From assembly GCF_054482525.1 (NCBI RefSeq), contig NZ_CM137006.1: 64,000 bases of DNA; one strand, given 5' to 3'. Shown piece after piece: positions 14,712 through 16,820 of this stretch (its first letter is position 1; each line of letters starts with the position of its first letter). The notes under the pieces were generated by a model. The model had not been told where the DNA came from. It worked only from the letters and a program-made list of their open reading frames with translations, and did not search any database. The translations under genes were made by a program, and so were the position numbers.

Positions 14712-16820
14712 TCAGTACTCTCTCATATCCGGCGTATCCTGCTTTTCATCAGGGGTCTTCGGTGGGGATTTCGAGGCTGCACAGTTCCAGTTAATCAACA
14801 GTGAGTCACCATTAACCTGCTCCTTACCCTGCAAATGAATTTTTGTGCCGTTGAGAAAAATTTGTCCGTCCTTAGTCAGCACCAGCCTTGCCTTACCACA
14901 GCAGAGTTCCAGATGCTCACCGGCGGAGTAAATCGCGGTCTGCCCGGTATCATCCTTTTTCGTTTTACCAACGGTGAAGGTAACGTTATTTCCGACTTTG
15001 ACGTCATAACCCAGCCCGACCATCAACGATTTATGCAAACCGATCTACGAGGACTGCATCAGGGCCACCGAGGTGTTCATAATGCCACCTACCGTCGTCT
15101 GATACGCCACGCCCACAGTCAGCGCACGAACAAGTCCAATCGTTTCCACCTGAACAGAGCCCACTTTAATGATCTGGTTACTGCCCACCGTCTCTATCTG
15201 GTTAACGCCCACCGTCTGTATCTGATTGTTGGTAACCGCAATCATCTGATTGTTGCCAATGGTCTCAGCATGGTTGTTTATCACATCCGTGGTGCGGTTA
15301 TTCAGCACCTCGGTGTTCATGTTCTTCTGCGCGTGGATGTAGACCTGTTCTTTCCCTGTCGCATCGTCAAACTTCAGTTCATTAAACCCGCTGCCCTTAT
15401 AGGTTTTCGAACGAATGGTCATCTGCGTCTTTGTTCCCGGCAGGCTGCCGGGGGTGCGGTTTTCCTGGTGGTAGGTACGCCCCATAATAATCGGCTGGTC
15501 CGGATCGCCGTTGAGGAAGTCCACAATGACTTCCTGACCCACACGCGGTATCGCCAGGTTGCCAAAGCCGGTGCCTGCCCACGCCTGTGCCACACGGATC
15601 CAGCATGAACTGTCCTGGTTTGACGGGTTATAGCGGTCCCAGTTAAATTTCACCCGCACGCGGCCATGTTCATCACAGAAGATTTCTTCTCCTGCCGGTC
15701 CCGTCACGACGGCGCTCTGCGGGCCGTCCACCAGCGGTTTCAGCAACGGCTGTGGCCGCCATGTTCTGTCTGCCGGTATTACCGCAAAGTGGTTATTCAG
15801 CGTGGTACCTGAACCCCTGCGTCCCGGCACCGCCTGCGGCTGCTCGCCGTGCAGTTCACTTGCCACCACCTGCCATTCCCGGTTCAGGTTCGCCTGCGGA
15901 TGCCCCGTCAGCGCAATTCGCCGTCCCGGCCATATCTCCGGCGAACGGCTTGTTCCGCGCGCCACTTCTGCGTTGTTTCGCCAGCCATCCATCTGCCAGC
16001 AGGCAAAGTTCTGCCCGTGGGCACCCTTGAAACGTCCGGGGTAGTCATACACTTCATACTGTGTGCGCTGGTAATCCTGGTGCTGGCCTTCCTGATCAAA
16101 ACGCCCTGCCCAGCCGGGTCGTTTAAAGGTGTAGTCTTTGGTCACCACGGAAGATGGGCGGATTTGTGCGCTGTAGAGGAACTGGCTGATGCATAGGGTG
16201 CTCACCTCGGTACGGGTGTTCGGATTCCAGGGGATCTCAAAGGACTCCGGCAGATAACGCACGGTGTCGCACAGGACCAGGCTCTGGTCGGTACTTTTTT
16301 GCGCGTGCTCCTCATAAAAGAAGATGCCTTCCTCCGCCGCCATCCGGCACAGGAAATCGTAATCGGTTTCGCCGTACTGGACACAAAACTCACGGGAAGG
16401 ATGCGGCTCGCTGAACAGCGGACTCCACTCGGTCACCCCGTTTTCTTTCAGGATCGTCGCGAGTATGCTTTCGATGTCCTCATTCTGGAAGATACGGAAG
16501 TTCTGGCGCAGCCCTGTGCGCCACAGCGGTGGGCACACCTTCATGCTGTACAGCATCTGGTTTTTGTCGTTCTCCCCCAGTTCAAACCAGGTCACCACAC
16601 CTTTCACCCGGCGCTGTACGTCATCGCCCTGCCATACCGTCAGGTAGGCCATTTTGTCCAGCACCTGCGCAAATTCAAGGGAGAGAAACTGCTGGCTGAC
16701 CAGAGAGAGATCGAGGGAAAAGAGCGAAGAGAGTGACTGGTTCAGATGAAAGGAGACCACCGCAAACGCGTCCGGTGGCAGGCCGTCCACTTCCAGCGTG
16801 AAACGTAATCCGGTTGACAT
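14712..16820 (-). pseudogene. vgrG: vgrG (T6SS spike protein) interrupted by an in-frame TAG at 15045-15047
   Basis: GGAGG then ATG at 16820 gives MSTGLRFTLEVDGLP..., 591 aa to ...SVALMQSS. After a single TAG the same frame continues IGLHKSLMVGLGYDVKVGNNVTFTVGK... to a TGA at 14712-14714, so the two track ORFs are one gene (about 702 codons). Confidence 0.8.

Follow-up and report, generated by a model that had tools for sequence, protein, structure and literature searches.

A recent amber allele of the RhsE-element vgrG in phylogroup-D Escherichia coli, probably exchanged between two loci by gene conversion

The vgrG gene of the RhsE element in a phylogroup-D Escherichia coli lineage carries a genuine and evolutionarily recent nonsense mutation, CAG to TAG at Gln592. 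We identified the allele in a 64,000-nucleotide stretch of DNA (the window), in which only 4 of the 64,000 bases differ from the genome of E. coli SCU-102. The evidence strongly favors the view that this gene is a recent nonsense allele, probably silent and decaying, that has been shuttled between two genomic copies by gene conversion. In SCU-102 and in other genomes PGAP already lists it as a pseudogene, noting an "internal stop", and little is changed by that routine RefSeq call alone.

The window gene is encoded on the minus strand between 16820 and 14712. One frame begins with the ATG at 16820, ends with the natural TGA at 14714..14712 and spans 702 codons (703 counting the natural stop), with a single amber codon at position 592 as the sole interruption, in the context ...SVALMQSS*IGLHKSLMVGLGYDVKVGNN.... 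The first-pass annotation had proposed that two minus-strand open reading frames, 15045..16856 and 14712..15038, are halves of one VgrG of about 702 codons broken only by this TAG. The open reading frame list and translation bear this out, because the two frames are the same and the read-through product is colinear with intact 702-residue orthologues. Chance does not explain the single-frame read-through, since orthologues that are intact at this chromosomal locus measure exactly 2109 nt (702 aa) and are colinear with it. The window gene, with its TAG at codon 592 out of 702, lacks an uninterrupted frame through to the spike tip. The loss comprises residues 592-702, or 111 residues, close to the 110 or so estimated at first.

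Table 1. Features of the RhsE locus in the window (positions are those of the 64,000-nt stretch).
Feature	Position	Strand	Details
ydcC, ISAs1-family (H-repeat) transposase, end of RhsE element	8638..9774	-	SCU-102 annotation
Small 114-aa ORF, immediately following the Rhs toxin tip	10120..10464	-	hypothetical protein WP_001279014.1
RHS element core protein, intact, 1384 aa	14645..10491	-	ORF; 66 nt downstream of vgrG
4,119-nt tract, 100% identity with the vgrG-rhs module beside hcp in the T6SS-1 cluster	12712..16830	-	nt -10 to +4109, counted from the vgrG start
vgrG codons 593-702 and natural TGA, now untranslated	14712..15044	-	distal beta-helix and spike tip
Premature amber TAG	15045..15047	-	CAG (Gln) to TAG; C-to-T at gene nucleotide 1774
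vgrG codons 1-591, still translatable	15048..16820	-	translation, Pfam and NCBIfam
yncH, frameshifted pseudogene in this lineage	17644-17834	-	annotation
yncG, frameshifted pseudogene in this lineage	17931-18420	-	annotation

The order yncH, vgrG, rhs, ydcC is common to the Rhs-linked VgrG (TssI) proteins encoded by vgrG/vgrE of the E. coli RhsG and RhsE elements (TIGR01646, TIGR03361). The names vgrG and vgrE historically derive from RhsG and RhsE, and the NCBIfam model is called vgr_GE. A literature search on "vgrE" and "RhsE" returned unrelated papers only.

Upstream of the stop, Pfam identifies a gp27-like hub (Phage_GPD, residues 29-327, E = 2.9e-73), a gp5 OB fold (Phage_base_V, residues 384-450, E = 7.8e-15) and the initial stretch of the beta-helix (Gp5_trimer_C, residues 467-576, E = 4.5e-26). 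On its own, the 591-residue fragment scores 626.7 bits against TIGR03361 (cut-off 186.35), where it covers profile positions 1-512 of 513, and 443.7 bits against TIGR01646 vgr_GE (cut-off 121.8). The fragment therefore has two features of a VgrG/TssI protein, namely the hub, OB fold and beta-helix in combination and a score above the NCBIfam cut-off. Codons 593-702 match no NCBIfam family. In the solved spikes 7Q5P (549-611) and 4MTK (543-601), the segments matched by residues 612-675 are those of the C-terminal tip. Judged from these alignments, the 591-residue product should retain the entire conserved VgrG core and lose the spike tip. The initial proposal that the missing end finishes the spike holds, as it comprises the distal beta-helix and tip, and the lost segment is not an extra cargo domain.

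Intact E. coli Rhs-linked VgrG proteins have the same full length (702 aa) and the same order of hub, OB fold and beta-helix, but the window gene, with its amber codon at 592, encodes only 591 residues and is a RefSeq pseudogene. Spikes of the Pseudomonas VgrG1 type (7Q5P; 4MTK, 4UHV) align with residues 14-544 (E = 1e-95 to 3e-100), and a second match pairs residues 612-675 with the last segment of their beta-helix. Residues 545-611 make the beta-helix longer in the E. coli protein than in these spikes, and a 27-residue tail rich in Pro and Lys is a further difference. The window allele is without everything from residue 592 on. VgrG1-type spikes are capped by PAAR-type proteins, and in homologous solved spikes the tip is the seat of the PAAR-type cap or of the Rhs effector. 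Ribosomes would terminate at codon 592 to yield a 591-residue VgrG, and docking of Rhs and PAAR would be lost with the missing tip. The truncated protein may retain residual spike function, and Rho-type polarity on rhs is possible. Downstream of the stop, codon 595 is TTG and codon 600 is ATG, both in frame and with no Shine-Dalgarno-like sequence visible upstream of either, and a separately translated C-terminal fragment produced by restart is possible but unsupported. A scan for promoters and terminators across 14500-17700 gave a site count no higher than that of shuffled sequence.

To place the stop among natural alleles, we counted both forms of the codon in 5,426 complete E. coli genomes using a 55-mer query in which the variable base lies within every 28-mer seed. 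TAG occurs in 30 of the 5,426 genomes (0.55%) and CAG (Gln) in 2,602, which makes TAG carriers 30 among approximately 2,632 genomes with this gene segment. Intact orthologues at the yncH–vgrG–rhs–ydcC (RhsE) locus are 97.8-99.95% identical in nucleotide sequence, and codon 592 is CAG in L004-L007, 19KM1776 and S1-SRL-01-C, in agreement with the earlier prediction of Gln in intact E. coli VgrG proteins. The vgrG gene of the nearest relative, 19KM1776, differs from the window gene solely at nt 1774, and its 25-kb flank is 99.9% identical. The stop is thus the derived state, with a sense codon in close and distant orthologues alike. No homologue was found that normally ends at ...MQSS, and all intact orthologues extend to 702 residues, which rules out this sequence as a natural terminus and removes one of the two findings that were to have overturned the reading of a split gene. 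Among the three origins first offered for the stop (a recent nonsense mutation, a sequencing error or a suppressible codon), these data uphold the recent nonsense mutation.

A sequencing or assembly artefact has next to no probability in our estimate. It is true that a single base separates the TAG allele from the nearest intact allele, that the gene sits in a 4-kb exact repeat where polishing or repeat collapse could in principle duplicate the TAG, and that some related assemblies are noisy, as at the RhsE locus of SW4848. However, 30 complete assemblies share this base, at 35 places in all, and the laboratories, hosts and countries behind them differ. In addition, 27 of the carriers link TAG to a second, non-homopolymer lesion, and the presence of TAG in both gene copies in five assemblies from different laboratories counts against repeat collapse or polishing. 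The identical TAG in 30 independent complete assemblies rules out sequencing error and disposes of that option.

The preserved frame also raises the question of whether TAG is usefully decoded, through a suppressor tRNA or through programmed or leaky readthrough that inserts Gln, to give a low, regulated amount of full-length VgrG. Gln, the ancestral residue, would be inserted by a supE-type suppressor or a near-cognate tRNA-Gln, and the sequence 3' of the stop is unchanged from the intact allele. Nevertheless, the stop is not conserved among orthologues (30 TAG against 2,602 CAG genomes), and readthrough would be pointless in most carriers because of an upstream frameshift. We found no tRNA genes in the window, and both tRNA-Gln(CUG) genes of the SCU-102 glnX-glnV operon are wild type with CTG anticodons, which speaks against supE-type suppression in this strain. 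That check covered glnV, glnX and their operon neighbours in the 4.86-Mb genome. A 55-mer with the supE-type CUA anticodon matches 158 genomes, and all 60 of those listed are K-12-type laboratory strains. With a tRNA-free window, wild-type glnV and glnX, and a frameshift in 27 of the 30 carriers, a suppressible stop is disfavored, and we consider useful decoding of the TAG very improbable.

The nonsense allele has been joined by further lesions. The upstream frameshift in 27 of the 30 TAG carriers is a deletion of A1483, a non-homopolymer lesion after which the first stop falls at codon 501; the deletion is also found in 19KM1831. PCN033, a porcine extraintestinal pathogenic strain of the same lineage, has a different vgrG lesion, ΔC1614. 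Many linked rhs genes are frameshifted, and the neighbouring yncG and yncH are pseudogenes (Table 1). Additional disabling lesions have therefore accumulated in the same gene and lineage, as is expected of a pseudogene. Because most carriers have acquired a second lesion and the RhsE-locus copy of PCN033 is reported to be unexpressed, we conclude that the RhsE-locus copy is probably silent and decaying. The C-terminal part of the window gene has zero substitutions relative to the intact allele (19KM1776 is identical except at nt 1774). For this reason, dN/dS on the downstream remnant is precluded, and relaxed selection on the C-terminal part is not demonstrable from a downstream 333 nt with no extra substitutions. 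The allele is too young for a selection signal in either direction.

The rhs gene that follows vgrG is intact. Its product scores 2704 bits against NF041261 RHS_core (cut-off 2000) and is laid out as an N-terminal KPAARQGD motif, DUF6531 (E = 7.8e-19), YD repeats and a C-terminal Tox-WTIP domain (E = 2.5e-13). The first-pass annotation described it as an intact PAAR-Rhs toxin. The intact Rhs frame is borne out, but the PAAR assignment is weak in Pfam, the label being based solely on the literal KPAARQGD motif and sub-threshold matches to PAAR_motif (E = 0.078 and 0.79). The 114-residue ORF that follows has no NCBIfam match, and its position alone suggests that it is the cognate immunity gene.

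No T6SS core genes had been seen in the window, and the annotation of the matching SCU-102 region agrees. When sought elsewhere in the genome, a complete T6SS-1 cluster was found at 816-835 kb of SCU-102, with tssM, tssA, tssH, tssL (icmH), tssK, tssJ, tssG, tssF, tssE, tssC, tssB, tagH, vasI and hcp annotated as intact. Next to hcp in this cluster, approximately 1.3 Mb from the RhsE locus, the 2.1-kb vgrG and about 3 kb of rhs are duplicated almost exactly. The cluster vgrG of SCU-102 equals the window copy at 2109/2109 nt, TAG included. Between nt 2364 and nt 2994, the two loci of the sister strains 19KM1776 and PCN033 are told apart by 32 diagnostic sites, and the SCU-102 cluster copy bears the RhsE-locus base at 32/32 of them. 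From this pattern we infer, as to both direction and order of events, that the cluster vgrG acquired TAG from the RhsE locus via gene conversion. By the same sequence comparisons, the tract given in Table 1 appears to be a gene-conversion substrate as well as a product.

TAG is found at both loci in five genomes: SCU-102, F344, E700025, SW4848 and UID2309220033. The ends of the converted tract differ in the last four, all of which retain a cluster-specific rhs deletion, and UID2309220033 also retains the cluster-type 1614T. Sharing between copies extends to other variants, as E700025 has a private SNP, 1008G, common to both of its copies, and ΔC1614 is common to both copies in PCN033. At the RhsE locus, moreover, all four combinations of nt 1483 (A/Δ) and nt 1774 (C/T) occur, across strains 19KM1776, SCU-102, 19KM1831 and 1190. 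Together, lesions at both loci with switched sites and recombination by the four-gamete test are the two signs of interlocus gene conversion, and in related strains they indicate further independent conversions. Homologous gene conversion would shuttle lesions between the RhsE and T6SS-1 copies, and in other strains it would have erased them. With TAG copied into the cluster vgrG, SCU-102 has no full-length copy of this VgrG, and counts of vgrG genes can mislead, since both SCU-102 copies of the sole VgrG of this type are truncated. The cluster copy is still intact in 25 of the 30 carriers (strain 1190, for example). Where both copies are truncated, the T6SS-1 of SCU-102-like strains must be either null or built on a tip-less spike.

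Work with PCN033 bears on these alternatives. Its flanks are ~100% identical to those of the window, and its vgrG differs at nt 1614 and nt 1774. The same two loci are present, the T6SS-cluster gene being vgrG1/0248 and the RhsE-locus gene vgrG2/1588 (PMC6363058). As in SCU-102, one lesion is found in both copies and leaves a C-terminally truncated VgrG and a separate C-terminal remnant; the lesion of PCN033 is the 1-nt deletion ΔC1614 (541 aa and a 158-aa ORF), whereas that of SCU-102 is the amber codon (591 aa). Zong et al. reported that both PCN033 vgrG copies are split into 541 and 158 residues (Zong et al. 2019, Virulence, PMC6363058). T6SS-dependent killing and the virulence phenotypes returned when only the 541-residue fragment was expressed, the C-terminal fragment gave no phenotype, and VgrG2 from the RhsE locus showed no expression under the conditions tested (PMC6363058). 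That paper treats the fragments as four "putative VgrGs" and describes neither a single disrupted gene nor an outcome of gene conversion (PMC6363058). A better reading of the "four VgrG proteins" is that a single disrupted gene is present twice, and the data then amount to an unplanned experiment in which a VgrG core without its tip can support T6SS phenotypes.

These observations raise the possibility that the 591-residue VgrG is a functional shortened spike, and that the allele alters effector loading, for instance by uncoupling Rhs, with T6SS-1 not abolished, and persists and spreads through being tolerated or favored. The fragment contains the complete conserved core, with all but one TIGR03361 profile position and Pfam domains reaching residue 576. 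The still shorter PCN033 version complements killing and virulence (PMC6363058), all other inspected T6SS-1 core genes of SCU-102 are annotated as intact, and in 5 of the 30 carriers TAG has reached the cluster copy, by no fewer than two distinct tracts. However, ΔA1483 in the RhsE-locus copy of 27 of the 30 carriers points to decay and not to maintenance, 25 of the 30 retain an intact cluster copy, and the allele is rare. The PCN033 frameshift is absent from every other assembly examined, and in the RefSeq record of PCN033 IS200C splits tssG, which fits poorly with the reported phenotypes. We therefore regard a working shortened spike as possible but rather unlikely. It is more doubtful still that a "blunt" 591-residue spike fires T6SS-1 without docking the two linked Rhs toxins, with gene conversion acting as a switch. 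If true, natural E. coli populations would possess a recombinational means of turning T6SS effector loading on or off, or of re-tooling it.

The preferred reading, a recent nonsense allele moved between loci by gene conversion, can be compared with the known behavior of Rhs elements. These "rearrangement hot spot" elements were named for the duplications and deletions that they cause. As in Rhs concerted evolution, homologous recombination exchanges sequence here between distant loci whose vgrG-rhs core repeats are long and nearly identical. Unlike Rhs rearrangements, this exchange is non-reciprocal, covers short tracts (<650 bp up to 1.2 kb or more) and moves or repairs inactivating point lesions.

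Two minus-strand ORFs, at 15045..16856 and 14712..15038, are present in the ORF list of the window, and translation of this strand showed that they share one frame of 703 codons, running from an ATG at 16820 to a TGA at 14714..14712. The sole interruption of this vgrG frame is a TAG codon (...NTSVALMQSS*IGLHKSLMVG...), which removes 111 residues. The first-pass annotation had described a VgrG split by a single in-frame amber codon, and it was correct in this reading as well as in the coordinates, the shared frame and the peptide that it quoted.

The first 25 kb of the window match E. 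coli SCU-102 (NZ_CP051753.1), isolated as a human commensal, at 100% identity. When the full 64 kb was rebuilt from the SCU-102 record, only four positions differed from the window, none of them in vgrG. The window has T and the record C (window plus strand) at each of these positions (3762, 10124, 11357 and 45876); of these, 11357 falls within the Rhs ORF and 10124 in the final codon of a 114-aa ORF. It is curious that all four differ in the same direction, although so small a number does not allow interpretation. The gene order in the SCU-102 annotation, pqqU(yncD)-yncE-ansP-yncG-yncH / vgrG / rhs / small ORF / ydcC(ISAs1), identifies the vgrG-bearing locus as that of the RhsE element.

Features of the vgrG locus in the window
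Feature	Position	Strand	Remarks
Premature amber TAG	15047..15045	-	codon 592 in minus-strand translation
RHS core protein gene	66 nt downstream of vgrG		1384 aa, intact; NF041261, DUF6531, Tox-WTIP
yncG + yncH	17644-18420	-	directly upstream of vgrG; frameshifted pseudogenes by annotation

We then considered which part of the protein is lost. With Gln placed at the stop, the read-through protein matches Phage_GPD (residues 29-327), Phage_base_V (384-450) and Gp5_trimer_C (467-576), with an additional weak beta-helix match at residues 576-621. On its own, the 591-aa fragment reaches 626.7 bits against TIGR03361 (cut-off 186), where it spans profile positions 1-512 of 513, and 443.7 bits against TIGR01646 "vgr_GE"; thus, the conserved VgrG core is encoded wholly ahead of the stop. 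No NCBIfam family matches the 110-aa remnant. In comparisons with solved structures, residues 14-544 align to the Pseudomonas VgrG1 spikes 7Q5P and 4MTK (E ~1e-95 to 3e-100), and a second segment, residues 612-675, aligns to their final beta-helix stretch. Together, the profile and structure matches indicate that the lost part is the distal needle and tip, with no appended effector domain. The downstream gene had been called an intact PAAR-Rhs toxin. It is indeed an intact Rhs (2704 bits against NF041261, with DUF6531 and a C-terminal Tox-WTIP domain), whereas its PAAR character consists of a literal KPAARQGD motif and sub-threshold Pfam matches (E = 0.078).

An intact 702-aa vgrG with CAG at codon 592 occupies the same locus in IMT16316, NRZ88308, O157:H7 SS52 and E. 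coli B. Among relatives, 19KM1776 is the nearest: it shows 99.9% identity over a 25-kb flank, and its vgrG, which codes for the intact protein WP_001605069.1, departs from the window allele only at the base that makes the TAG. It follows that CAG became TAG through a C-to-T transition. Alleles were counted across 5,426 complete genomes using 55-mers in which each 28-base megablast seed was forced to span the variable base. CAG was found in 2,602 genomes and TAG in 30, at 35 places. Gln had been proposed as the ancestral residue and a recent nonsense mutation as one origin of the stop, and both proposals are upheld by the orthologues, 19KM1776 and the census. The alternative of a sequencing error is ruled out by the thirty independent assemblies that carry TAG. 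Base quality does differ among "complete" assemblies: vgrG at the RhsE locus of SW4848 (segment L019:1269-3362) has dozens of 1-2 nt indels compared with all other strains and is broken into several fragments by PGAP, almost certainly through uncorrected long-read error.

A suppressible stop had also been suggested, but the TAG is not conserved among orthologues, and 27 of its 30 carriers also have ΔA1483, a 1-nt deletion outside any homopolymer that shifts the frame upstream of TAG and brings the first stop to codon 501. The 64-kb window contains no tRNA genes. Both tRNA-Gln(CUG) genes of the SCU-102 glnX-glnV operon, to which the suppressor check was limited, are wild type, and among the matches listed (60 of 158) a supE-type allele occurs only in K-12 laboratory strains. 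Even on a check of this one operon, programmed or suppressor-mediated decoding of TAG is very unlikely. The window vgrG belongs to the well-known Rhs-linked VgrG family without having an intact ORF: it is a truncation allele or nonsense pseudogene, and RefSeq already records it as such (PGAP label "internal stop" in the SCU-102 record).

The annotation of the corresponding 64 kb of SCU-102 includes no T6SS core gene, as the first-pass annotation had stated for the window. The TAG 55-mer matches this genome twice, however, and the second match lies inside a complete T6SS-1 cluster adjoining yafV, in which tssM, tssA, vasI, tssH, tssL/icmH, tssK, tssJ, tagH, tssG, tssF, tssE, tssC, tssB and hcp are all annotated as intact. 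The cluster vgrG is likewise annotated "internal stop" and is identical to the window copy at 2109 of 2109 bases. The repeat common to both loci begins 10 nt ahead of the vgrG start codon, spans vgrG and reaches into the rhs core, and in SCU-102 is perfectly identical over 4,119 nt (window 16830..12712). Other Rhs genes of this genome are also disrupted (L008:25222-29170 and L024:33793-35001): the second Rhs in this cluster is annotated "frameshifted; internal stop", and the Rhs beside ybfA (RhsC locus) carries an "internal stop".

Comparison with 19KM1776 and PCN033, in which 32 sites at gene nt 2364-2994 (the 5' part of rhs) separate the RhsE-locus and cluster copies, showed that the SCU-102 cluster copy has the RhsE-type base at all 32. 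Sites flanking this stretch, from nt -11 upstream and from nt 5101 downstream, are still cluster-type. The RhsE locus therefore donated to the T6SS cluster a TAG-bearing tract whose length lies between 1.2 kb and ~5.1 kb.

State of the two vgrG copies in E. coli strains at gene nt 1483, 1614 and 1774 (counted from the start codon; TAG arises at 1774; Δ, 1-nt deletion)
Strain	RhsE-locus copy	Cluster copy
SCU-102 (window's genome)	TAG	TAG
19KM1776	intact	intact
1190	TAG + ΔA1483	intact, 1614T
F344	TAG	TAG
E700025	TAG + private SNP 1008G	TAG + 1008G
SW4848 (noisy assembly)	TAG + ΔA1483	TAG
UID2309220033	TAG + ΔA1483	TAG + 1614T
PCN033	ΔC1614	ΔC1614
19KM1831	ΔA1483, CAG	
S1-SRL-01-C	intact, cluster-type 1614T	

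About 25 other strains were grouped with 1190 on their RhsE-locus lesions, the cluster state being read in 1190 only. The tracts of F344, E700025, SW4848 and UID2309220033, which also carry TAG in both copies, end earlier than that of SCU-102 because all four retain a cluster-specific rhs deletion. The UID2309220033 tract is shorter than ~650 bp, since cluster-type 1614T is retained 160 nt upstream of TAG. All four ΔA1483/TAG combinations occur at the RhsE locus, a four-gamete violation over 291 bp. These site states show that repeated interlocus conversion both spreads and erases vgrG lesions; event order and direction would rest on a core-genome tree. Recombination among Rhs repeats is classical. 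The shuttling of point lesions at this fine scale between orphan and cluster vgrG illustrates it neatly, without amounting to a new kind of mechanism. In the 1190-type strains 1190, F344, E700025, SW4848 and UID2309220033 (L013-L017, ~13015), the cluster Rhs lacks ~625 bp of its 5' end, start codon included, and is annotated "missing N-terminus", so a headless Rhs follows the cluster vgrG there.

Termination at codon 592 would yield a ~65-kDa protein that retains the hub and OB fold, with a shortened needle and no native tip. Because the spike tip is where a PAAR-type cap or effector docks in homologous systems, truncation would put the loading of both linked Rhs toxins at greatest risk. Polarity could also lower rhs expression, as ~400 nt of RNA ahead of rhs would no longer be translated.

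The sister strain PCN033 provides a direct experimental precedent: each of its two vgrG copies is divided into ORFs of 541 aa and 158 aa, and the 541-aa product by itself was enough to complement virulence-related phenotypes and T6SS-dependent killing of W3110, the 158-aa one being without effect (PMC6363058). Its lesion, ΔC1614, differs from the window TAG, which leaves 591 aa. Two caveats attach to this precedent: the frameshift was seen in no other assembly among those examined, and the baseplate gene tssG of the PCN033 cluster (L012:3015-4808) is split by IS200C in the RefSeq record, at odds with the reported T6SS-dependent phenotypes (PMC6363058). Possibly the stock is unlike the sequenced clone, the phenotypes are tssG-independent or the assembly is wrong. 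By analogy with the PCN033 RhsE-locus copy, whose expression was not detectable (PMC6363058), the window copy is probably silent. What matters biologically is the TAG of the cluster copy, and T6SS-1 of SCU-102 may be either dead or running on a tip-less spike. That the truncated spike is functional, with conversion acting as a switch, strikes us as improbable.

Upstream of vgrG, yncG (glutathione S-transferase-like) and yncH (DUF5445) are annotated as frameshifted in SCU-102 and all its close relatives, and yncH is intact in more distant strains; decay seems to affect the entire neighbourhood in the SCU-102 lineage. The small toxin-antitoxin and toxin genes hokB, hicA/hicB and ortT, annotated at ~25000-51000 of the window (SCU-102 2103215-2127354), are ordinary E. 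coli core content.
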